DNA of 64,000 nucleotides from a virus, in the IMG/VR virus record IMGVR_UViG_3300025759_000058; one strand, given 5' to 3'. The notes under the pieces are model-generated. The model did no database searches and was not told the DNA's origin. It saw only the letters and a list, made by a program, of their open reading frames with translations. Of the stretch, positions 2,407 through 57,728 are shown piece by piece. Positions within the stretch are counted from its first letter, which is position 1. Every line of letters begins with the position of its first letter. A program made the translations under genes and the position numbers.

Positions 2407-5115
2407 ATGCGAATAATATCCTTTTTATATTTGTTTTTAGCTGTTGCATTAACAAATATATCTGCGCAATGTGACGTATTTATCGAACCAGGGTCTGTAG
2501 AAGTTGTAGATAATGGTACTGGAGTTCAATTTAGATTTGATATAACGAATAATTCGGGAGTAGATTGGTATGGTGATGTTTTAAAAATGTATTGGTCACT
2601 CAATTCAAGTGCCCCAATATGGAATATTGATTACAGTACTGATGTAAATCAACCCCCAATAGCACCCGGTGAAACTAGGACAATCAAAACACCATGGTTT
2701 GATATTCCTAACTTACCTTCTTGGTTCCCCGATGACCCTACTACGGCTCAACCTTGGGAAGAATCTATGGAATGGCCCTATTATGGGCTATCTTTTCCTT
2801 TCCAAGGTGCCTGGTCCCAAATGAATTTAAGATTGGGAAGTTGTGGATTAGCAGATGGAGCATGGGTTCATGATGATAATGGTGATGCATACTATGGCCC
2901 ATTTAATACAGATTGCCCTGATTTAGATAATGATGCATTTTGTGATTGTGATTTAGAAATAGTAGGATTTAACCCTTCTAGTTTAGATATTGAAGTTGAA
3001 GTAGTGAGTCATTGGAATTGTGGACAACCCTTAAATGGATTAGATAACAGTACATCTGCTAATATTGATGGAATTAATATGATTCATTTCGGTATCCATG
3101 TGCCAGGATGGGATTTTCAATGGGGTTGTACTACTGATATTAACCATCCGGGCTGGTCTTTTACTGGATGGTCTACGTCTGATGAAAGCGAGTTCTTACT
3201 TGCAGGTGATGTTTTTCAGGAGAATTTAAATAATCTAATCCCTCCCAATTCATGTTTCGAGGACATATTATCTAACGATTCGATATCAGAATGTAGAGAA
3301 ATTGTATTATGGCAAATAAACTATTCTCAAACTTTAAGTACGGCTGACGGCGGCTGGGCATTGAATCCGCTAGATGAAAATAATACACAAGAATATCCTG
3401 ATAATACGCTTATAGATAACACAATATTAATTTGCGAAATACCTGTTGAAGGCTGCATCGATCCTTTTGCATCTAATTATAATCCTGACGCTGAGGTAGA
3501 TGATGGGTCATGCGAATACCTTTTCCCCGATGCTGACCCCAATGCAAACTTCAATGATGTAATATGTAATGGGGAAGAAGCTGAATCATTATATAACGTC
3601 TTTGTTTACAATCCAGGTAGTGATACTCTTTTTTATTATTGTGTAGAAATTCCTGAAATAGGGTTTGATGAATGTTATAATGGGTATCAATCAGGAAATT
3701 TATGGATTGAACCTGGCGCCGGCCAGTTTATAGGAACCTTTAATATTCCTTCTGATATAACTCAATTTACTATTATAGTATACAATGCTGAAGGTGAACA
3801 GGATGACGATAACTCAAATAACACACAAATAGTTAATGTAACTCCACCTAATGAAACTATTTGTATAGACCCTATTGAACTAGATTTATTAGGAGAAGAA
3901 ATATGGTCTATAGGAGGAACATGTACTGATCCTTATTTTAATCAATCATTTGTAGTTGAAAATACTGGAGAAGCAGTTGTTGATAGTTTCCTATTCGATA
4001 TATTTGTAACAACCTGGGACAATCAGTTTGTAAGTTCCTTATCTCAAACATTTTACCCTTCATTAGAACCGGGAGAACAATATACTATTAATAATCTTCC
4101 TAATATTTTTACTGGAGATTTAAACTATGTCTTTGTTTCAGTATCGTGGTATGATGAAACTGGAGAATTAGTAGTAGATACTCAATCTTTTAATGTTATT
4201 ATATACTGCTGGGGTTGTACAGATCCTGAAGCCAATAATTACATAGATAGTCCTTATGTATTCGATGAAATCCAAGACTACTGGACAAATGACTTCCCTA
4301 ATATTACTCCTCCTACGCCAGACCAAATAGAGTGTACATATGATATTTATGGCTGCACCGACCCATTAGCGTTGAATTACGAGCCAGATGCCAATATTGA
4401 TGACGGAAGCTGCGAGTATAATGTTTTTGGATGTACCGATCCTGCAGCTAACAATTACAATGCAGATGCTACTATCGATGACGGAAGCTGTGAATATGAT
4501 ATCTACGGTTGTACAGATTCAGATGCAATTAATTATGACTCAAATGCTACCATAGATGATGGTAGCTGTATGTTTCCAGGTTGCACAGACCCGGACGCTG
4601 ATAATTACGATCCTACAGCTAACGTCGACGATGGTAGTTGCGTCTATTATATCTACGGTTGCACAGATTCTGCAGCTATAAATTATAATCCTGATGCGAA
4701 CGTAGATGACGGTAATTGTATATATAATATTTACGGTTGTACAGATTCCAATGCCATTAATTATAATCCTATTGCATCGACTGATGACGGTAGTTGTATA
4801 TACGATCCATGCGATGGGCCGTTAGGTGCTATATATTTTGCACCTAATACGTTTACGCCTAATAACGATGGGATAAATGATGGATGGGCGGTTATATCAG
4901 ACCCATCATGTTGGCTTCGATGGAATGTTTATATTTTCAACCGATGGGGTCAATTAGTCTGGGAATCGACGACGCCTGGAGAAGTTTGGCCTGGTAGTAC
5001 ATTTAGTGGCGGTTATTACGTAGCTGATGGTATCTACTTTTATAAAGTAAAAGGTATTGGATATAATCCTGCTAATACATTTGAAACAACGGGTCATGTA
5101 ACAGTCTTTAGATAA
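2407..5115 (+). CDS. Secreted acidic repeat protein with T9SS type-B (gliding motility-associated/CHU_C) C-terminal domain
   Basis: Signal peptide MRIISFLYLFLAVALTNISA-Q; GCTDPxAxNY...DDGSC repeats; C-terminus PNTFTPNNDGIND...IFNRWGQLVWE...DGIYFY...GHVTVFR. Confidence 0.9.
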   Translation: MRIISFLYLFLAVALTNISAQCDVFIEPGSVEVVDNGTGVQFRFDITNNSGVDWYGDVLKMYWSLNSSAPIWNIDYSTDVNQPPIAPGETRTIKTPWFDIPNLPSWFPDDPTTAQPWEESMEWPYYGLSFPFQGAWSQMNLRLGSCGLADGAWVHDDNGDAYYGPFNTDCPDLDNDAFCDCDLEIVGFNPSSLDIEVEVVSHWNCGQPLNGLDNSTSANIDGINMIHFGIHVPGWDFQWGCTTDINHPGWSFTGWSTSDESEFLLAGDVFQENLNNLIPPNSCFEDILSNDSISECREIVLWQINYSQTLSTADGGWALNPLDENNTQEYPDNTLIDNTILICEIPVEGCIDPFASNYNPDAEVDDGSCEYLFPDADPNANFNDVICNGEEAESLYNVFVYNPGSDTLFYYCVEIPEIGFDECYNGYQSGNLWIEPGAGQFIGTFNIPSDITQFTIIVYNAEGEQDDDNSNNTQIVNVTPPNETICIDPIELDLLGEEIWSIGGTCTDPYFNQSFVVENTGEAVVDSFLFDIFVTTWDNQFVSSLSQTFYPSLEPGEQYTINNLPNIFTGDLNYVFVSVSWYDETGELVVDTQSFNVIIYCWGCTDPEANNYIDSPYVFDEIQDYWTNDFPNITPPTPDQIECTYDIYGCTDPLALNYEPDANIDDGSCEYNVFGCTDPAANNYNADATIDDGSCEYDIYGCTDSDAINYDSNATIDDGSCMFPGCTDPDADNYDPTANVDDGSCVYYIYGCTDSAAINYNPDANVDDGNCIYNIYGCTDSNAINYNPIASTDDGSCIYDPCDGPLGAIYFAPNTFTPNNDGINDGWAVISDPSCWLRWNVYIFNRWGQLVWESTTPGEVWPGSTFSGGYYVADGIYFYKVKGIGYNPANTFETTGHVTVFR
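4348..4803 (+). repeat. Six tandem 24-26-aa Cys/Asp coding repeats (GCTDxxAxNYxxxAxxDDGSC)
   Basis: Visible in DNA and protein; further copies near 3451-3519 and (partial) 4210-4242. Confidence 0.95.
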
Positions 5116-8231: not shown

Positions 8232-8913
8232 AAAACAAAATACTGAAATGCAAGATATTATTTCAGATGAATTACAAGAAGTCGAATTAACCGAGCCGGA
8301 ACAAGCTGAGCTCGAGACGACGATACAATCTGACCCGGATTATTTACAGTATGCTCCGGAGGCAGTAGGATATGCTACTCGAGAACAGCAGTTTAATATG
8401 TATAAAGCAATTGCAACGCATATTGATGATCCGACTCGTAGTATATTAGATTTCGGTGCAGGTAGAGGAGACTTTGGCCGATGGTTATGTTCAAACTATG
8501 AACTTACAACGAATGACATTCAGTATAAAGGTATAGAACTAAATCAACCTTTGGTAGATGCATGTACTGCACTAAATGACAATATCAATGTCACTACGGC
8601 GGATTGGCTTAACTTAGATGATAGTGTAAAAGCAGAATGGTGTGTTAATATCAATTCAAATAATATGCGTTATGATGCAGATATTACGAAATCTGATATG
8701 GACTATCTTCAGAGTACTATTTCTAAGATGTATGACACTGCAGAATTAGGAGTCGTAATTTCGTTAACATCGGATGTAACAAATACACAAGATGGCTTGA
8801 TAAATTGGAACGCCGGTGATATATTTAATTGGGCACAAAATACATTTGGACGTGTTGCGTTAGACCATACAATGTCCGATGACATGTTCATTTTAATCAT
8901 TTATAAATTTTAA
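8203..8913 (+). CDS. Class I SAM-dependent methyltransferase
   Basis: ILDFGAGRGDF motif I and YKGIELN motif II. Confidence 0.8.
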   Translation: MFDRIRKKIKKQNTEMQDIISDELQEVELTEPEQAELETTIQSDPDYLQYAPEAVGYATREQQFNMYKAIATHIDDPTRSILDFGAGRGDFGRWLCSNYELTTNDIQYKGIELNQPLVDACTALNDNINVTTADWLNLDDSVKAEWCVNINSNNMRYDADITKSDMDYLQSTISKMYDTAELGVVISLTSDVTNTQDGLINWNAGDIFNWAQNTFGRVALDHTMSDDMFILIIYKF

Positions 8914-8917
8914 AACT

Positions 8918-9193
8918 ATGAGTATAAACAATAGACATTCTGTTGATCAGCAAAAGGTTCGTCGTTATGGACGTCATTACGGTTCAATTGATTTTGAATG
9001 TAATCAATCAATCGACGCAAATTTGTTTCAAAAATCACCGGAGCGTCCGGTCATTGGAACATTTATGATTGATAATAAATCATTTGATCTTACATGGGAC
9101 GAATTGGAACTTATCGAAGAAACGATGAAGACAGCACGTGAGACGACCATGAAGCGTTATCGTTTAGGAATGATGGGGAGATTGAGCAGATAA
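8918..9193 (+). CDS. Hypothetical protein
   Basis: 91-aa ORF within the gene run. Confidence 0.7.
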   Translation: MSINNRHSVDQQKVRRYGRHYGSIDFECNQSIDANLFQKSPERPVIGTFMIDNKSFDLTWDELELIEETMKTARETTMKRYRLGMMGRLSR

Positions 9194-9423
9194 TGGGGTT
9201 TCATCGTCGCAGTATTAACGTTGATCTAATTAGATCAGAATATTTGCGGCTAGGTTATGAAGGAATCGATAGACTTTTTAAGAAAGGAAGATATGATGTA
9301 TTATCATTAAGTGATGCAAAGTCAGTTAAAATTCATGATATCTTCCTTTCTTACTTTGATTCTGAGCTAGATAAATGCAAGCATATTCATAAGATTCTAT
9401 TTGATGAGATTAACGAAATCTAA
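9193..9423 (+). CDS. Hypothetical protein
   Basis: 76 aa; TAATG coupling. Confidence 0.7.
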   Translation: MGFHRRSINVDLIRSEYLRLGYEGIDRLFKKGRYDVLSLSDAKSVKIHDIFLSYFDSELDKCKHIHKILFDEINEI

Positions 9424-9492
9424 TATTTATTTTAAAGAGGGTATTATCCATGACCCAGTCACTCTCTTTACTATTAGATAATCTATAGTATT

Positions 9493-9885
9493 ATGAAGTT
9501 AAGTGACCTACAATTACATGAGGATGAATTTGATGTATTCATCGGACTTCCGCCGTCGTTAAAAATAGCTTTTATTGAAGATATACACCGTAACGGCGAA
9601 GTTGAAATTGAAAAATACTTGCAAGGAATGTATGATCGGCAAGATCTAATGTTTCAATTTCAAGAAGTAGTTGTTGATGATGAATATATGAGCGTGATAC
9701 AATATGGTGATGTGTTACGACTAAATGCATCTAGCCTTAAGCTTCTAAAAACATTCGTTAAAAAGCTTTGGATGGATGGTCTTATTTTATCTCGAATACA
9801 CGAAACAAAAACAATTTGGGATACGAGGAGATATTTACGTGTCTATAAATTGCTATCACAAGTATCACCTATCTGCGAAAATTAA
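9493..9885 (+). CDS. Hypothetical protein
   Basis: 130 aa; ATATTTAT at 9423 and a hairpin-rich leader. Confidence 0.7.
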   Translation: MKLSDLQLHEDEFDVFIGLPPSLKIAFIEDIHRNGEVEIEKYLQGMYDRQDLMFQFQEVVVDDEYMSVIQYGDVLRLNASSLKLLKTFVKKLWMDGLILSRIHETKTIWDTRRYLRVYKLLSQVSPICEN

Positions 9886-9901
9886 AAAAGTTTAAAATAA
9901 C

Positions 9902-9932
9902 TTGGCATTTAACGTTAAAGTTATTATATTTA
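9902..9932 (+). promoter_or_regulatory. Bacteroidota-type sigma-A promoter of hsp20
   Basis: TTG(9902)-N20-TATATTTA(9925-9932). Confidence 0.75.
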
Positions 9933-9942
9933 TATCTGAAAA

Positions 9943-10443
9943 GGGTTGATACTGCGGGTCGGCCATTTTTTAAAAATTATTGTTTAACCATCTAAGGAGG
10001 TAAAAATTATGAGTAGATATCCACTACAATCATTCGATCTCTTGTTTAGAGATATGTTTAATGCAAATTCAGATTTTGCATCAGCTTTTCAAACCAAAGT
10101 TCATCACCCAGTAGATATTCGAGAGACCGATGAAGGTCTTTTAATTGAGATTGCAGTCGTAGGAGCTGAGCGTGATGATATTGAGCTTTTGGCTCAAGGC
10201 GATACTATTAGGGTCGCATATCGCAAAGATAATCGTGAAGAAGACGATTATATCCAACGTGGGATTGCAAAACGCAATTTCGATTTAGGCTGGCGCTTGG
10301 CTAGTAAGTTTGTCGTTGAGCAGACAACAGCAACTCTTGATAAAGGGCTGTTGACTATCCATGTTCCATTTGTTAAAGAAGAAAAACCAGTTAAGGTTAC
10401 GATTAAGTAATTAGTTACGTAGGCCGGCCCGCAAATCAGCCTC
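9943..10443 (+). repeat. Imperfect GC-rich inverted repeat flanking hsp20 (arms 9943-9964 and 10422-10442)
   Basis: gggttgatactgcgggtcggcc pairs with ggccggcccgcaaatcagcct using G-U pairs and one small internal loop. Confidence 0.85.
10009..10410 (+). CDS. hsp20: Small heat-shock protein (Hsp20/alpha-crystallin)
   Basis: PVDIRETDEGLLIEIAVVG...RGIAKRNF...ATLDKGLLTIHVP; TAAGGAGGT at 9993-10001. Confidence 0.95.
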   Translation: MSRYPLQSFDLLFRDMFNANSDFASAFQTKVHHPVDIRETDEGLLIEIAVVGAERDDIELLAQGDTIRVAYRKDNREEDDYIQRGIAKRNFDLGWRLASKFVVEQTTATLDKGLLTIHVPFVKEEKPVKVTIK

Positions 10444-10475
10444 TTATACCTATTTTAAGAACGATTAACAACGCT

Positions 10476-10670
10476 TTGAAGCAATACCAGTATATAGATT
10501 ACCAGAACCAACTCTTTATTGTGGAACGTGTTATACGTAGAAGCCATTTTAAAAAAGAATTGGATAGTGTATTGTTAAAGAAATGGACACATTGTGATAC
10601 GATATTACAAAAAGATGACCATTTCTATTTTTGCAATTTAGTGCCTGATGCGGAAATAATTTCCGAATAA
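10476..10670 (+). CDS. Small hypothetical protein (TTG start)
   Basis: 64 aa; fills the gap to the next promoter. Confidence 0.6.
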   Translation: MKQYQYIDYQNQLFIVERVIRRSHFKKELDSVLLKKWTHCDTILQKDDHFYFCNLVPDAEIISE

Positions 10671-10671
10671 A

Positions 10672-10703
10672 TTTGGATTCGTACTTTTTTTCTCTTATCT
10701 TTA
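10672..10703 (+). promoter_or_regulatory. Bacteroidota-type sigma-A promoter
   Basis: TTTG(10672)-N20-TATCTTTA(10696-10703). Confidence 0.75.
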
Positions 10704-10722
10704 GATATAAGAAATTAAGAAG

Positions 10723-10829
10723 AAGTAAGAGCGAGTGAGTACGCTGTTAGGTTGGCATCAAGAAAAAGGGTTTGTAGTAAGGCCAGCATACCAGAAACCC
10801 CGAAACACCCATAAGCTCGCTCTTACTTT
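10723..10829 (+). ncRNA. Candidate structured RNA or 5' leader, about 105 nt
   Basis: Closing stem aagtaagagcgagt / gctcgctcttactt; inner gggttt / aaaccc stem; lies just downstream of a promoter. Confidence 0.55.
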
Positions 10830-10838
10830 AAATAATAA

Positions 10839-11309
10839 ATGACGATGAAAAATAAAGTTGTAATCTTCGATCTCGATGGCACATTGGCATTGATCGACGA
10901 TCGTCGCAAATTAGCGACAAAGCCAGATGGCAAAATGGATTGGGATAAATTTTTCGATCCTACAAATATTGATTTAGATTTGCCTAACGATCCAGTAATT
11001 CAAATGGCACAATCGCTTAAAGATTCTGGTAAAACTATTGTCATCTTTTCCGGAAGGAGTAAGGCGACCAAGGATGCTACTCGAAATTGGCTGAATCGCC
11101 ACAATGTACCATTTGATATTCTTAAGATGCGTCCGACCGGGCACCCATGGGCATTTATGCCAGATGATAAACTTAAGCAAGGATGGCTTGATGATTTGTT
11201 TACCGATAAGTCAGATATTCTTTGTGTATTTGATGACCGACAAAAGGTAGTAGATATGTGGCGAGCAAATGACATTACTTGTATGCAAGTTGCACCAGGA
11301 CAATTTTGA
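10839..11309 (+). CDS. HAD-family polynucleotide 3'-phosphatase (stand-alone PseT/Pnkp phosphatase domain)
   Basis: DLDGTL motif I, FSGR, MRP, FDDR motif IV; no P-loop kinase domain. Confidence 0.85.
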   Translation: MTMKNKVVIFDLDGTLALIDDRRKLATKPDGKMDWDKFFDPTNIDLDLPNDPVIQMAQSLKDSGKTIVIFSGRSKATKDATRNWLNRHNVPFDILKMRPTGHPWAFMPDDKLKQGWLDDLFTDKSDILCVFDDRQKVVDMWRANDITCMQVAPGQF

Positions 11310-11335
11310 TTTTTGAGAAATAGTTATTATCTTTA
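11305..11335 (+). promoter_or_regulatory. Bacteroidota-type sigma-A promoter, probably leaderless
   Basis: TTTG(11305)-N19-TATCTTTA(11328-11335); ATG at 11339. Confidence 0.65.
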
Positions 11336-11338
11336 TAT

Positions 11339-12391
11339 ATGAGTGATTTAGTACAAGTCGGTTATGCATGTGTTAACATGACATTAACAAGCCGGCCCAA
11401 AAAGTTAGGCGGCCGTGTTACAACGTCTCGCGGTTGTCGCAAAGCGACATGGTATCCTACGCGTGATTTGCATAAGTTAGGTGAGCTAGCATTAGCCAAT
11501 GCCAACGACTTGCTTATGTATCTCCGATGGAACGAAGAAAACAATATTCGCTTGTTTCGGCTAGGTTCTGAGCTTGTTCCATGGCACGACCAATTCGAGC
11601 TACATGAGCTACCGCAGTATGACGAGTTAGCAGATACGTTACGTATTGCCGGCAACTATGCCAAGCAGCATGGCCATCGTATTACGACACATCCCGGTCC
11701 GTTCCACGTATTAGGTTCGCCTACTCAAGCGGTCGCGGACAAGACTATCATCGGCCTCGAGCGCCATTCTGAGATATTCGATCTTATGGGGTTTGACCCG
11801 TCACCGCATAACAAGATCAATATTCATATCGGCGGCGCTTATGGTGACCATGAGACTACGGCCAAGCGATGGATTGCCAATTGGCAACGCCTATCCGATG
11901 CATGCAAGGCCCGACTTGTTATCGAGAATGACGACAAACCCAGTATGTACAGCGTTGTGCAGTTGTACGAGTTATTCCATCGAGAGATTGGTATTCCAAT
12001 TACGTTTGACTATTTTCACCATACATTCCATACTGGTGGTTTATCCGAACGCGAAGCGTTAGAGTTAGCCGGCTCGACTTGGCCGGACGATGTCGTGCAG
12101 TGTACTCACTATTCCGAATCACGACGTGATGAGCAGACATTAGCTTTGCAACGTGTATGTGAGTCCCATGGCATTAGCATTGACGATATGCCCAATTGGC
12201 CGACATTTGCCAAGATGCATGAGCAGTTTCAGAAGATCAAGGCTCAAGCGCATTCCGATTACATTACCAAGCCTATCGACAGCTACGGCAATCGCATCGA
12301 CGTCGTTGTCGAAGCCAAAGCCAAAGAGTTAGCCGTTTTACGGTATAAGAATGATGTAATTAAAGAAAATTCTAGATTGTTAGTTTCTTAA
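11339..12391 (+). CDS. uvsE: UV damage endonuclease (UvsE/UVDE)
   Basis: GYACVN, LFRLGS, THPGPF, INIHIGG, IENDD, FDYFHH, HYSES, AHSDYI, VEAKAKE. Confidence 0.95.
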   Translation: MSDLVQVGYACVNMTLTSRPKKLGGRVTTSRGCRKATWYPTRDLHKLGELALANANDLLMYLRWNEENNIRLFRLGSELVPWHDQFELHELPQYDELADTLRIAGNYAKQHGHRITTHPGPFHVLGSPTQAVADKTIIGLERHSEIFDLMGFDPSPHNKINIHIGGAYGDHETTAKRWIANWQRLSDACKARLVIENDDKPSMYSVVQLYELFHREIGIPITFDYFHHTFHTGGLSEREALELAGSTWPDDVVQCTHYSESRRDEQTLALQRVCESHGISIDDMPNWPTFAKMHEQFQKIKAQAHSDYITKPIDSYGNRIDVVVEAKAKELAVLRYKNDVIKENSRLLVS

Positions 12392-53523: not shown

Positions 53524-53618
53524 TTTGGTTCTTTTAACTTTATTACATACGTATATCTAAACATTTAAAATTTTAAAAAGTTATATAACTTTTGTGATAT
53601 TTATAACAAAGGATTCGT

Positions 53619-55940
53619 ATGTTAGGAGAATGGTTAGCTAATCAACTACTTAACGAAAGTCAAATTAAGACAGTCGTTGTAATATACCCCGGCCGTTTTC
53701 AGCCAATGGGTAAACATCATGCCGAAGTATATAAAAAATTAGCTTCTAGATTTGGTAAATCGAACACATACATTGCAACATCTGATAAAGTGGCGTTACC
53801 AAAGTCCCCATTGACCTTTAATGAAAAGAAACGTGTTATTAATAAACACGGCATTACAAACGTCATTCAAGTAAAAAACCCATATCAGTCCGCAGAAATA
53901 ACTAGCAAGTATGATCCAGAAACGACAGCTGTCTTATTTGCGGTTGGTAAAAAAGATATGATGGAAGATCCTAGATTTAAAGTAGGATTTAAAAAGAACG
54001 GTGAGCCATCATATTTTCAATATTATGATGATAATAAAGATAATTTATTACCATATACTAAACATGGGTACTTATACGTTGCGCCACATGTATCATTAAA
54101 TGTTCCTGGATATGGAGAAATGTCAGGAACAATATTACGTCAGGCATTGGCAAATGCAACGCCTGCAGATTTTAAGTCAATCATGGGATTCTTTGATCCT
54201 ACAATTTATAATCTTCTCAAAAAAAAATTCTCGAAGCTAGCGATAGAAAACATTGAACGGTTTATAGTTGAAAATAGTAGTAATCTACCGTTGGGTAAAT
54301 CTATGGTAGACGATGGCCCAAGATATTTTTATGGTAATCAAGCTACTTATCGTGCTAAAAACAAACAAATGGCAGAAAAGTTAGGATTTTCAGTTCTTAA
54401 TTACATTATCAAAGATAGCCCTATAGAAGTGCATTCAACAGAATATCCAGATGGACCACCTATGGGTGTATCATACTTTCCTAGTGGTGTGGCTGGTTCG
54501 AATTATGCAGGTACTAATTATATAAAAGATATGCGCGGAAATCCCGCGTACCAAGAATGGTCTAAACATATAAGTAAAGTAGCACAACAAGTAGGATATA
54601 AGTTTTTAAACTTTCTAGGAGCCGGCGAAGCAATTGCTAGCTCTAAAAACGAACCAACGACGCCAGTGCCAATAAAAGAATCATTATTTACTGCAAACTG
54701 GTGGAAGACTATTATAAAAGAGTCTCTTATAACAGAAGGCGGCGCATCAGGTCATATGTCACATCCATTTGATGATCGAGATTTGACTTTCGCAGAAATG
54801 AAAGAAATTATTCGTTTATCGTTGGAAGGACGATTGGATTTAGAAGCCGATGTGACAGAAAAGACAGATGGGCAAAATCTCAATGTAACATTTAAAGATG
54901 GTAAAGTAGGCGCTGCTAGAAATAAAGCTACGATACGTAATCCATTAGATGTGCAAGCCATTGAACGTAAGTTCGCAGATAGAGGTGAATTGACGAAAGC
55001 ATTTTCGTATGCAATGCGCGATTTAGAACAAGCTATATTAGCACTACCGCAAGATAAGCGAGAAGAAGTATTCCAAAATGGAACTAGATTTCTAAACTTA
55101 GAAATTATATATCCAGGCACGAAAAATGTCATCAATTACGGTACGTCGGCATATCTGCAGTTTCATGGACTAAACGAATTTGATTTAGAATCTGCAACTA
55201 AAACAGATACTTATCCAGAGTATGGACCACTATTGCAGTCATTGATAGCAGATGTGAATGCTGATGTTCAAAAACATTTTAAAATTATTCCGCCAAAAAA
55301 ATTAATGATTCAACGTAGTATTGATTTCGAAAAATTAGAGCCTGAATTTATTGCTCGTGTCAATAAACTTCAAAAAGAGTTTGGATTAAAAGACTCTGAC
55401 GAAGTTATGAAATATCATGAAGAATGGTGGCGACGTAAAATAGATTTAGATTTTCCGTCCGCTACTACGGAAGTAAAGGAAGGCTTGTTACAGCGATGGG
55501 CATATAATGATAAATCGTTTAGGTTAAATGGAAAATCAGTACCGGATGTTGATATGCTTAATAAGATTAAAGCGTACGATAAACAAGACTTTGCTAAGCA
55601 GAACAAAGCAAATGTAGCTCGATTCGAAGAAATTTTTCTAAAGCTAGGAGCCGAGGTGTTATCAAACGTAAAAGAATTTTTAGCTGCCTCGCCAAATGAA
55701 AGTGCACAAGAACTAAAAAGAGATATCGCCCAAACAATCAAAGAGTTACAGAAGGCAAAGGATATCGGCTCACTTGATAAGGTCAAATATGAACTTAAAA
55801 GAATTGAATCTATAGGTGGATTTGATAAGATTGTTCCATCCGAAGGTTTAGTGTTTATGTATAAAGGTAATTTGTATAAACTTACCGGTCTTTTTGCACC
55901 TGTTAATCAATTGTTAGGATTATCTAGGTATAGTCGTTAA
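53619..55940 (+). CDS. Fusion of a HIGH-superfamily nucleotidyltransferase-like domain, an unknown domain and an RNA-ligase-like domain
   Basis: YPGRFQPMGKHH...AVGKKD...MSGTILR; C-terminal TEKTDGQN, NLEIIY, FHG, SEGLVF, YKLTG; ATATTTAT at 53597. Confidence 0.75.
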   Translation: MLGEWLANQLLNESQIKTVVVIYPGRFQPMGKHHAEVYKKLASRFGKSNTYIATSDKVALPKSPLTFNEKKRVINKHGITNVIQVKNPYQSAEITSKYDPETTAVLFAVGKKDMMEDPRFKVGFKKNGEPSYFQYYDDNKDNLLPYTKHGYLYVAPHVSLNVPGYGEMSGTILRQALANATPADFKSIMGFFDPTIYNLLKKKFSKLAIENIERFIVENSSNLPLGKSMVDDGPRYFYGNQATYRAKNKQMAEKLGFSVLNYIIKDSPIEVHSTEYPDGPPMGVSYFPSGVAGSNYAGTNYIKDMRGNPAYQEWSKHISKVAQQVGYKFLNFLGAGEAIASSKNEPTTPVPIKESLFTANWWKTIIKESLITEGGASGHMSHPFDDRDLTFAEMKEIIRLSLEGRLDLEADVTEKTDGQNLNVTFKDGKVGAARNKATIRNPLDVQAIERKFADRGELTKAFSYAMRDLEQAILALPQDKREEVFQNGTRFLNLEIIYPGTKNVINYGTSAYLQFHGLNEFDLESATKTDTYPEYGPLLQSLIADVNADVQKHFKIIPPKKLMIQRSIDFEKLEPEFIARVNKLQKEFGLKDSDEVMKYHEEWWRRKIDLDFPSATTEVKEGLLQRWAYNDKSFRLNGKSVPDVDMLNKIKAYDKQDFAKQNKANVARFEEIFLKLGAEVLSNVKEFLAASPNESAQELKRDIAQTIKELQKAKDIGSLDKVKYELKRIESIGGFDKIVPSEGLVFMYKGNLYKLTGLFAPVNQLLGLSRYSR

Positions 55941-55973
55941 CTACATATTTATTTAAAAGAATAGGAATAAACT

Positions 55974-56477
55974 ATGAAAGAATCTGAATTAAGGTCAATG
56001 ATCCGTAGACAGATAAAAGAATCATTAAAAGAAAATGATTCATTTTTAAAACAAGTAGGCGGATCTGTTCGTGCAAAGCTTGGAAGTCGTAGACAAATGT
56101 TAGATAGAATTTTAGCAACTATTGACACTAACAGATTAACTAGATTGCCTCGAGTCCAAAAAGTTGATTTAGTAGTTGCATTAATTCAAAAGTTTGGCAT
56201 TTCTCAACAAGATTTTGCATCAATCAAATCAAGAGTACAGCGTAATTTAGGAGTCGGTGAGTCAGTGAACGAAGCTGAAGGATCAAACTTAAGTGGCGCA
56301 TTAGCATCACGTGGCGAAAAACTTGAAAAAACTCAAGCATTTAAAATGTTAATGAAGGCAGTTGAAGCAAAGCCAACAGCACAACAAGTAGATTTTGCAA
56401 TTGACTTCCTCAGTAAGTTGCCTTTAGATGATGCCGGCAAGCGTCGTTTAAAAATGAAAATTCGTCAATTTCTTTAA
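55974..56477 (+). CDS. Hypothetical protein with internal duplication
   Basis: PRVQKVDLVVALI / PTAQQVDFAIDFL; leader MKESELRSMIRRQIKESLKE; ATATTTAT at 55945. Confidence 0.7.
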   Translation: MKESELRSMIRRQIKESLKENDSFLKQVGGSVRAKLGSRRQMLDRILATIDTNRLTRLPRVQKVDLVVALIQKFGISQQDFASIKSRVQRNLGVGESVNEAEGSNLSGALASRGEKLEKTQAFKMLMKAVEAKPTAQQVDFAIDFLSKLPLDDAGKRRLKMKIRQFL

Positions 56478-56479
56478 TC

Positions 56480-57094
56480 ATGAGCAATAAGTTACAAAAT
56501 ATTAAAGCTGTACAGCAGCTGCTAGATGGCACACATAAATCTCAGACTCGTACAACAGTAGGATTCAATAAAGATTCTAAACATGAACGGCGCGAAGTCG
56601 GCGACGTTTGGGAAGAAGTAATGCCAAATGGTACGGTATATATAGTTACACAAAACAAAGGATTTCGTACTAGAAAGCCTAAAAATAGTGTTAAGTCAAA
56701 AATTAAAGATTTACTTAAAGTACCGGAACAGTGTCCGTCATGTGGGACTAAAATGCGTAACGAAGAAAAGCGATTAAACTTTAAGTTTTGGTTTAAACGA
56801 AAAAAATGTTTTGGTTGTGTTATAAAAGAAGAACAAGAAATTCGTAACCAAGGTTATAATGCATGGCAAGAATATGAACAACGTATAATGTCCGAAAATG
56901 CAGAGTCATGGTTTAAAGATACTGATGCTGAAGTTGAATTAATAAAAACACAAATAAAAGAGACATATTGGCAAAATGCGGACGGAGAAAATGGTCAAGT
57001 TGATATTTCATCGGTTATAGAAAAAATTGAAAATGATTATAAAGAATTAAAATCAAATGTCCGTAAACAATTTGGAACAATCGATGAACAATAA
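56480..57094 (+). CDS. Zn-finger hypothetical protein
   Basis: CPSC...CFGC. Confidence 0.75.
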   Translation: MSNKLQNIKAVQQLLDGTHKSQTRTTVGFNKDSKHERREVGDVWEEVMPNGTVYIVTQNKGFRTRKPKNSVKSKIKDLLKVPEQCPSCGTKMRNEEKRLNFKFWFKRKKCFGCVIKEEQEIRNQGYNAWQEYEQRIMSENAESWFKDTDAEVELIKTQIKETYWQNADGENGQVDISSVIEKIENDYKELKSNVRKQFGTIDEQ

Positions 57095-57728
57095 AGAACA
57101 AATATTAAGAGCTGAAATAAAACGTCTAGTTAATGAAGTACTTTCAGAAGCAGACGAAGGCCAAGACTTAGAAAAGGAATTGTCTAAAGTAGGAACTGAA
57201 TTAGCCGCAGCAATTAAGAAAGCTGATATCGACGTATCTGAATTGGAAGAAAAATACCAACGGGCAATTGATGAAGGAGCTGATAAGAATCAGCTTAATG
57301 AAATTGTTATAGAGACGATTACAGCAATCTTATTAAAGATTATGACAGTTAATGCTATCATAGGATTAATTACAAAAGGCGTAAAGTTTCTTTCAAAAAA
57401 ATTAAATTGGCAAAAAGGTGAAGATTTTGCTGAAAAGATTTTGCATTATGTACATGAGGTCGAAGCTGGATTTAAAAAGCCGTTGGATGTAGTATTAAAA
57501 TTGTTTGTTAAAGATGCGCAAACGAGAAAATCGGTTGTCAATATAATGTATGCTATATTAGTCGCATCATTGGCAGTAGGATATGGAACAGAGGCAATTC
57601 AGTCTCTTAAAGATGCGGAATGGTTCAGCGGCGGAGTAAAAGGTCTTAAAGTATTAGCTAAGTCTGATGAAGTAATGGCTAATCTTAAGAATCCAATTAT
57701 TGTTAAGGCAATTAAAGCATTTGCATAA
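57084..57728 (+). CDS. Hypothetical protein with hydrophobic helices
   Basis: LRAEIKRLVNEVLSE leader; two hydrophobic stretches after QLNE. Confidence 0.7.
   Translation: MNNKEQILRAEIKRLVNEVLSEADEGQDLEKELSKVGTELAAAIKKADIDVSELEEKYQRAIDEGADKNQLNEIVIETITAILLKIMTVNAIIGLITKGVKFLSKKLNWQKGEDFAEKILHYVHEVEAGFKKPLDVVLKLFVKDAQTRKSVVNIMYAILVASLAVGYGTEAIQSLKDAEWFSGGVKGLKVLAKSDEVMANLKNPIIVKAIKAFA

Follow-up and report, generated by a model that had tools for sequence, protein, structure and literature searches.

A phage head-module gene joins a HIGH-signature nucleotidyltransferase to an RNA-ligase-like domain behind a candidate capsid-targeting leader

Layout of the fusion gene

The DNA analysed here, a 64-kb stretch from the IMG/VR virus record IMGVR_UViG_3300025759_000058 (called the window below), carries at positions 53619-55940 of its + strand a single uninterrupted open reading frame (ORF) for a protein of 773 amino acids (aa). 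This fusion protein joins a nucleotidyltransferase domain with the HIGH signature to a C-terminal domain with the fold of RNA ligases, and it begins with a short leader that may direct it into the phage head. An initial annotation, made from the letters alone, had listed the motifs of both domains, the codon of the predicted catalytic lysine (54861) and a series of prohead-protease-type borders. All the motifs were found at their announced places: the HIGH-type motif at residues 23-34 and, in the ligase part, KTDG at 415-418, SEGLVF at 741-746 and YKLTG at 753-757, the K415 codon starting at 54861. The border motifs are LLNE (10-13), FIVE (215-218), PIKE (351-354), IIKE (365-368) and LITE (370-373), the latter being followed by GG. 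Five of the eight [IL]-x-E sites of the protein fall at module borders. An overall enrichment of such sites was considered and rejected (8 seen versus 7.9 expected from composition), so that the case for cut sites must rest on position and conservation; the sites do stand out by their location and by their pattern of conservation across relatives.

The C-terminal domain has the fold of RNA ligases

The C-terminal domain (residues 374-773, 54738-55937, + strand) begins with the invariant segment GGAxGHMxHPFDD. It had been proposed to have a ligase fold with a KxDG lysine, and structure prediction combined with comparison to the PDB upheld both points. The AlphaFold2 (AF2) model of residues 365-773 had a pLDDT of 87, and its closest fold was that of the Naegleria RNA ligase (Z 8.9, 185 aligned residues, root-mean-square deviation 3.9). 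Next came Trl1 (Z 7.4-8.0), T4 Rnl1, REL1, Rnl2 and Rnl3, then DNA ligases and capping enzymes; the top 39 rows of the structure-comparison list were all ligases or capping enzymes. The DNA ligases (from African swine fever virus, ASFV, and Prochlorococcus marinus) matched at Z 6.1-6.5 and were throughout below the RNA ligases. The top Foldseek matches of the domain were also all ligases, with weak E-values (from 4e-3).

The motifs of covalent nucleotidyltransferases could be placed on the model as follows: I, K415; Ia, R434; III, E495; IIIa, F515/H516; IV, E742-G743; V, K749/K754. K415, R434, E495, F515/H516, E742-G743 and K754 are invariant and lie on the expected beta strands of the predicted structure. 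K415 (codon 54861-54863, + strand), the predicted AMP-accepting lysine, belongs to a K-T-D-G motif that shows no variation among 42 aligned sequences. In the best local alignments it falls on K35 of T4 Rnl2, and E495 falls on E159 of T4 Rnl1, with non-significant scores.

Several features set the domain apart. An all-helical insertion of about 180 aa (residues ~558-739, 55290-55835, + strand) separates motifs IIIa and IV. Its helices occupy residues 206-367 of the modelled fragment and the alignments with ligases span model residues 12-402 with about 185 aligned, i.e. the helical domain is inserted inside the nucleotidyltransferase domain and is not appended to it. The invariant Gly/His/Asp-rich segment GGAxGHMxHPFDD directly upstream of the ligase fold is equally unusual; the presence of Glu, Cys or Met beside its invariant His, His and Asp suggests a putative metal site. 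The domain has neither the Ia domain of NAD-dependent ligases nor the OB or DNA-binding domain of DNA ligases. The best explanation, as far as models can tell, is that this module is a lysine-adenylylating, ATP-dependent polynucleotide ligase of a new clade.

The N-terminal HIGH domain

The initial annotation had called the N-terminal part cytidylyltransferase/NMNAT-like, which proved correct. The AlphaFold model of residues 1-364 shows a confident Rossmann-type domain at 1-212, in which the HIGH-signature nucleotidyltransferase, of NadM/PPAT-like type by model, Foldseek and motifs, covers residues ~17-212 (53667-54254, + strand). Among PDB structures, Foldseek ranked PPAT and nicotinate-mononucleotide adenylyltransferase (NaMNAT) first (E 6e-6, probability 1.0), with ATP sulfurylase and NadM next. 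The two signatures for nucleotide binding are present, GRFQP-x-G-x-HH at residues 25-34 and, at 168-174, M-S-G-T-x-x-R, which resembles ISSTxxR. The first is unusual here in reading G-x-H-H (G-K-H-H); some relatives have the canonical H-K-G-H or T-Q-G-H.

At the sequence level the domain is much less conspicuous, since models (Pfam, PHROG 395) gave a weak cytidylyltransferase-like signal at residues 17-116 only. The gathering cut-off of Pfam CTP_transf_like (PF01467) was not reached (16 bits versus 21), and 16 of 43 long relatives matched this family at E ≤0.001. All the NCBIfam matches were NMNAT models far under their cut-offs; for the NMN adenylyltransferase equivalog the best score was 19.5 bits for a cut-off of 449, with the first ~55 residues matching. 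In the mechanism that we favour (see below), the HIGH domain would act as the near-constant partner of the ligase and would place a nucleotidyl group on an acceptor that carries a phosphate, either an NMN-like molecule or the end of an RNA.

Family and fusion partners

The C-terminal domain was found in 1,847 clusters (at 50% identity), almost only from phages or viruses, and nearly always at the C-terminus of proteins of 400-2,000 residues. A search of 185,579 species genomes, outside viral collections, brought up only 13 loci with the domain, the majority of them on short contigs of metagenome-assembled genomes. A cellular origin was rejected on this ground, two of these loci being on long contigs that look phage-derived.

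Among 148 representatives, 67 combine the N-terminal (N) and C-terminal (C) domains, 32 have in addition a middle cassette (M) in the order N+M+C, and in 42 the C domain is alone or behind something else. A Pfam scan of the 43 long relatives revealed a CCA-adding enzyme in six, an HD domain in three and a Pnk/AAA_33-type P-loop kinase in three, as well as DUF5661 and one ART-like domain. The most elaborate case is a relative of 1930 aa where leader, HIGH nucleotidyltransferase, kinase, HD domain, CCA-adding enzyme and ligase form a single chain. The fusion of a 5'-kinase, a phosphoesterase and a CCA-adding enzyme with the ligase points to tRNA end-healing and sealing. RNA or tRNA repair, one of several functions initially proposed, thus gains strong support as the predicted activity.

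A small module rich in the motif G-D-T-x-x-M-G-K-F-K-N-K-K, probably DUF5661, was seen between the N and C domains of several relatives (P0069, P0072, P0214 and others). It is flanked by V/I-N-E joints, including a repeated E-S-V-N-E peptide.

The N-terminal leader

Residues 1-13 (53619-53657, + strand) are predicted to fold into an amphipathic helix with L-L-N-E at its end. They make up a candidate capsid-targeting propeptide, which a gp21-type protease would cut after E13. In T4, capsid-targeted internal proteins carry an N-terminal propeptide of about 10-19 aa that ends in (L/I)-x-E (PMC9026906), a description that fits residues 1-13. Of 114 close homologues, 106 retain E13. Over the whole family, two hydrophobic residues followed by x-E (hh-x-E) occur within the first 26 residues of 178 of 239 proteins (74%), with a sharp peak at positions 13-16, against 13% in internal windows taken from these proteins. 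The leader tracks the N-terminus of the protein and not the N domain: in proteins that carry the HIGH domain further inside, it is still the very first segment and does not occur in front of that domain. Leaders of 10 residues, in which positions 4, 7, 8 and 10 match the determinants of the T4 capsid-targeting sequence (CTS), open both the Firmicutes copy and the cyanophage relatives described below. In T4, exchanging the last propeptide residue from Glu to Asp prevents cleavage and leaves targeting intact.

Internal joints and middle cassette

Between the two enzymatic domains lie three elements, all on the + strand: the FIVE joint (residues 215-218, 54261-54272), of hydrophobic-x-Glu type; cassette M (residues 219-354, 54273-54680), with a conserved V-D-D-G-P-R-Y core and PIKE as its end; and a joint peptide (residues 355-373, 54681-54737), which contains a W-W helix, IIKE and LITE and leads into the ligase module. 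No fold or family match was obtained for residues 213-364, which were modelled poorly; for cassette M the AF2 pLDDT was below 50 and the ESM Atlas gave no usable lead. Cassette M is optional. The closest relative (81% identity in the N domain, 74% in the C domain and 90% in terL) is devoid of it and has five residues in place of 215-356. Swaps of this kind indicate that the borders are true module joints.

The conservation of the xxE sites themselves, expected from the initial proposal, was found in part. It holds for the hydrophobic-x-Glu at the end of the N domain, which 73 of 101 clusters have no more than 10 residues from a fixed anchor, irrespective of the module that comes next (14% for random anchors), and for the Glu before the ligase module, which is mostly kept (P3 is Leu or Ile in 119 of 123 clusters, P1 is Glu in 95 of 123). 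Cassette M is regularly preceded by h-h-x-Glu (h, hydrophobic), then Ala, Ser or Asn. Conservation fails for E218 and E368, which are poorly conserved among close homologues and speak against cutting there; so does P1 before the invariant GGAxGH, a Cys or Met in 26 of 123 clusters. Because of these replacements LITE is weakened as a purely Glu-specific cut site, and its conservation may reflect the enzyme rather than cleavage. More generally, constant residues where a homologous domain ends may just be part of the domain itself. We therefore regard cuts at E218, E354 and E368/E373 that would free the modules as a tentative proposal, somewhat less probable than its opposite.

Genomic context

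The fusion gene follows tail-fibre genes and precedes a Zn-ribbon gene, terL and a T4 gp20-type portal gene. The order fusion gene, Zn-ribbon gene, terL and T4-type portal is held in virtually all of 80 IMG/VR loci and in the Microcystis phage Mel-JY01, whose homologue has the N+C architecture and on which no publication turned up in a literature search; the fusion gene is always two to four genes upstream of terL. A gp21-type protease (Peptidase_S77) was present in all five related records searched, including that of the closest relative. On a Firmicutes contig, a stand-alone copy only 26% identical lies 1.2 kb upstream of an S77 protease gene and a gp23-type capsid gene, with no fibre genes nearby. 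The link to a T4-type head module thus spans very distant lineages.

The expression of the gene is probably late. The motif ATATTTAT occurs at 53597-53604 (+ strand), 15 nt before its ATG. In the window, 23 of the 25 copies of this motif are on the + (coding) strand, mostly right after the stop codons of structural genes (e.g. at 12391, 18199, 32221, 36840, 47616 and 59345). The total count alone is not significant (25 seen versus 18 expected in the window); strand bias and placement behind structural-gene stops fit a late-promoter-like element, and ATATTTAT appears to behave like the late-promoter element of this phage.

Relatives in cyanophage virions

NMNAT-like 'cytidylyltransferases' have been detected by liquid chromatography-mass spectrometry in purified virions of the T4-like cyanophages S-SZBM1, S-CREM2 and S-SCSM1, and one of the papers remarks how often such virion detection occurs (PMC9146016, PMC10665884, PMC9602691). 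Our N-domain profile recognised the S-CREM2 protein at 20.7 bits (E 1e-8, calculated for one target). For the S-PM2 homologue, structural comparison gave a match to the C-domain model (E 1e-5); its K-W-D-G and E-G motifs precede its HIGH domain, which means that the order of the two modules is reversed.

The likeness to these proteins (cyanophage T4-GC 190) consists of a HIGH nucleotidyltransferase with a GR(F/Y)xP motif placed behind a 10-residue CTS-like leader and, for the S-PM2 copy, fused with a ligase-like module in which KxDG and EG motifs occur. The differences are the distance of the similarity (~60 residues), the reversed order in S-PM2, a gene located outside the head module and, in most copies, the absence of the ligase module. 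The near-constant pairing of the ligase clade with an NMNAT-like transferase provides a link to this core cyanophage gene, whose product has been recovered repeatedly in virion proteomes.

In the record of Synechococcus phage S-PM2 (NC_006820; positions 2764-4543 of the locus analysed) p141 and p142 ('cytidyltransferase') read as the halves of one ligase-like/HIGH-transferase protein interrupted by stop codons. It was a 591-aa UniProt version of this protein that matched the C-domain model.

A proposed head-targeted repair enzyme and its alternatives

The interpretation that best explains these observations is that the fusion protein is a head-targeted and injected RNA-repair enzyme of a new ligase clade; we hold the chances of this complete scenario to be about even. 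The protein would be made late, as a modular RNA-repair protein, and loaded into the prohead, its 13-residue leader acting like a T4 capsid-targeting sequence that binds it to the assembly core. The gp21-type (Peptidase_S77) protease of the phage would then remove the leader after E13, and the enzyme would be injected with the DNA so as to be active before any phage gene is expressed. The ligase would then form K415-AMP, pass the AMP to the 5'-phosphate of an RNA end and seal this end to a 3'-OH. The target would most likely be a tRNA broken by host anticodon or acceptor-stem nucleases. Head packaging with removal of the leader, taken by itself, is likely: the leader follows the N-terminus, the gene has a fixed place in the head module, relatives have gp21-type proteases and NMNAT-like relatives are found in cyanophage virions.

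A bolder version, close to what had been put forward initially, is that of a plug-in tRNA-repair kit in the capsid, in which one leader would load a chain of enzymes (the NMNAT-like transferase, the new-clade ligase and, as options, kinase, HD phosphoesterase and CCA-adding enzyme), the gp21-type protease would cut the joints and the freed enzymes would be injected to counter tRNA cleavage by host defences ahead of all phage gene expression. We consider it possible and rather unlikely.

A number of findings weigh against the scenario that we favour. As regards the ligase, hhalign and HMM comparison with T4 Rnl1 and Rnl2 paired the motifs correctly, and the scores were not significant; the C domain matched no Pfam ligase family at E ≤1, and neither phmmer nor a profile search of the PDB returned a ligase at E ≤10. 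Scans of PHROGs and NCBIfam did not match it to a named family either, so that fold comparison alone identified the domain. The window contains no tRNA genes, and no obvious end-healing enzymes adjoin the fusion gene. As regards the head, the prohead protease of this phage lies outside the 64-kb window, location in a late or head cluster can reflect the timing of expression only, and the cyanophage virion proteins are distant relatives that match over ~60 residues, were identified from 2-3 peptides and are not encoded in a head module. About 20 clusters lack the leader and start directly at the first strand of the fold, and the leader could be the ordinary N-terminal helix of a cytoplasmic enzyme.

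This last point leads to the alternative that survives best, namely a late enzyme that is not packaged and works in the cytoplasm to keep tRNAs intact during heavy late translation, possibly with a second, gp63-like role in morphogenesis. On this view, the helix at the N-terminus and the borders with hydrophobic-x-Glu would serve as plain structural linkers, which would agree with the existence of members without leader and with the Cys or Met found before GGAxGH in 21% of the clusters. T4 rnlA (gp63, Rnl1) is annotated as both RNA ligase and tail-fibre attachment catalyst, and here the fusion gene directly follows tail-fibre genes. Against this, the leader moves with the N-terminus, and the spacing of its h-h-x-E is sharply fixed even between highly diverged sequences; the linkage with S77 and gp23 persists in the distant Firmicutes element where fibre genes are absent, and NMNAT-like relatives are present in virions. 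We judge this alternative unlikely.

A role in NAD+ or nucleotide metabolism, or as a nucleotidylation effector, appears improbable. The HIGH domain would be a true NMN adenylyltransferase that rebuilds NAD+, for instance against NAD-depleting defences or to feed phage ADP-ribosyltransferases, and the ligase-like domain would adenylylate a target other than RNA, or use NAD+. The N domain does match at the sequence level only NadM/archaeal NMNAT models and phage NMNATs, its GRFQP signature is typical of them and one relative carries the ART-like domain. Against this, the NMNAT scores are far below the cut-offs and HxGH is altered to G-x-H-H; the fusion partners are tRNA-end enzymes instead of NAD-salvage enzymes; and the ligase domain, without the Ia domain of NAD-dependent ligases, has ATP-dependent RNA ligases as its closest folds.

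Finally, a DNA-directed packaging enzyme that would seal nicks or adenylylate phage DNA ends, during packaging or after injection, would suit the fixed place two to four genes upstream of terL and the DNA ligases among the structural matches, but it is very improbable given that RNA ligases outrank DNA ligases, that an OB or DNA-binding domain is missing and that the fusions with CCA-adding and Pnk-like enzymes point to tRNA.

Comparison with known systems

The closest parallel for a head-targeted enzyme is provided by the T4 internal proteins IPI-III and Alt, which have a short amphipathic propeptide of 10-19 aa ending in (L/I)-x-E; as in T4, the lineage has a T4-type portal and, in the related records, a gp21-type protease. 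Alt is an enzyme that is packaged and injected, and that is cut also at a second site (PMC9026906). Here, by contrast, the cargo would be an 88-kDa, three-module enzyme of RNA-repair type, its 13-aa leader has a different sequence, and the enzyme, if cut at its internal joints, would count as a polyprotein, unlike the cargo of T4.

Among ligases, T4 Rnl1 (gp63), which together with Pnkp repairs tRNA as a counter-defence to the PrrC anticodon nuclease, and Rnl5 of Naegleria gruberi (PMC4408790, PMC7261155) share the fold with motifs I, III, IIIa, IV and V and the predicted lysyl-AMP. The association of the relatives with 5'-kinase and phosphoesterase domains also recalls the T4 Rnl1/Pnkp pair. 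Unlike Rnl1-5, to which no similarity is detectable by sequence, the present family has a helical insert of ~180 aa between IIIa and IV in place of an appended domain, the invariant GGAxGHMxHPFDD upstream of motif I, a late head-module gene and a HIGH nucleotidyltransferase fusion. Fungal and plant Trl1 (PMC6379707, PMC12440814) resemble it in uniting sealing and end-healing in one polypeptide, and their ligase domain ranks high among the structural matches; the order of domains is different, relatives here have HD instead of the 2H CPD and the 773-aa member has no recognisable healing domain.

The polyvalent proteins of Iyer et al. (2017), with 2-15 enzymatic domains and a predicted fate of packaging and injection (PMC5512222), are alike in their several enzymatic domains in variable order encoded near portal and terminase genes, and the present family falls within this definition. 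RNA ligases were not found in that survey, and the processing proposed there was by built-in zincin-like peptidases (PMC5512222), not by a prohead protease acting on hydrophobic-x-Glu joints.

The ligase clade is one that no domain database names, with an unusual helical insert and a new conserved His/Asp segment, and it could be of use as an enzyme. The T4 Pnkp/Rnl1 pair and phage-encoded tRNAs must be expressed before they can answer tRNA-cleaving defences; if our interpretation is right, a repair enzyme that enters with the DNA would be a different and faster anti-defence strategy. Should the kit exist, it would account in the same way for the 'cytidylyltransferase' that T4-like cyanophages encode as a core gene and carry in their virions. 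In any event, the family lends itself clearly to testing whether prohead proteases of the T4 type act on cargo polyproteins built from modules.

Other observations at the related loci

The Zn-ribbon gene (56480-57094), which comes after the fusion gene and before terL at almost all of the ~80 loci, encodes a 204-aa protein with two CxxC pairs and no family match. This protein could act together with the fusion protein or be a factor that resembles a small terminase. Two small genes before terL (55974-56477 and 57057-57728) have amphipathic starts ending in hydrophobic-x-Glu, and the first of them has a copy of ATATTTAT directly upstream (55945-55952).

Elsewhere, the 410-kb Firmicutes contig encodes, in the region 8430-12060 of the locus analysed, a protein of 565 aa whose Peptidase_S77 domain takes up the first 140 residues. 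A long extension follows, so that the protein may be a fusion of protease and scaffold, and the gp23-type gene comes next; the locus looks like a T4-like head module inside the contig. In one related contig (14047-16754 of the locus analysed) the terL match is in two pieces ~1.1 kb apart, which suggests an intron, an intein or a homing-endonuclease insertion. Far from the fusion gene, at 10839-11309 of the window, a 156-aa ORF starts with a HAD-type D-x-D-G-T motif and might encode a 3'-phosphatase like the phosphatase half of T4 Pnkp.

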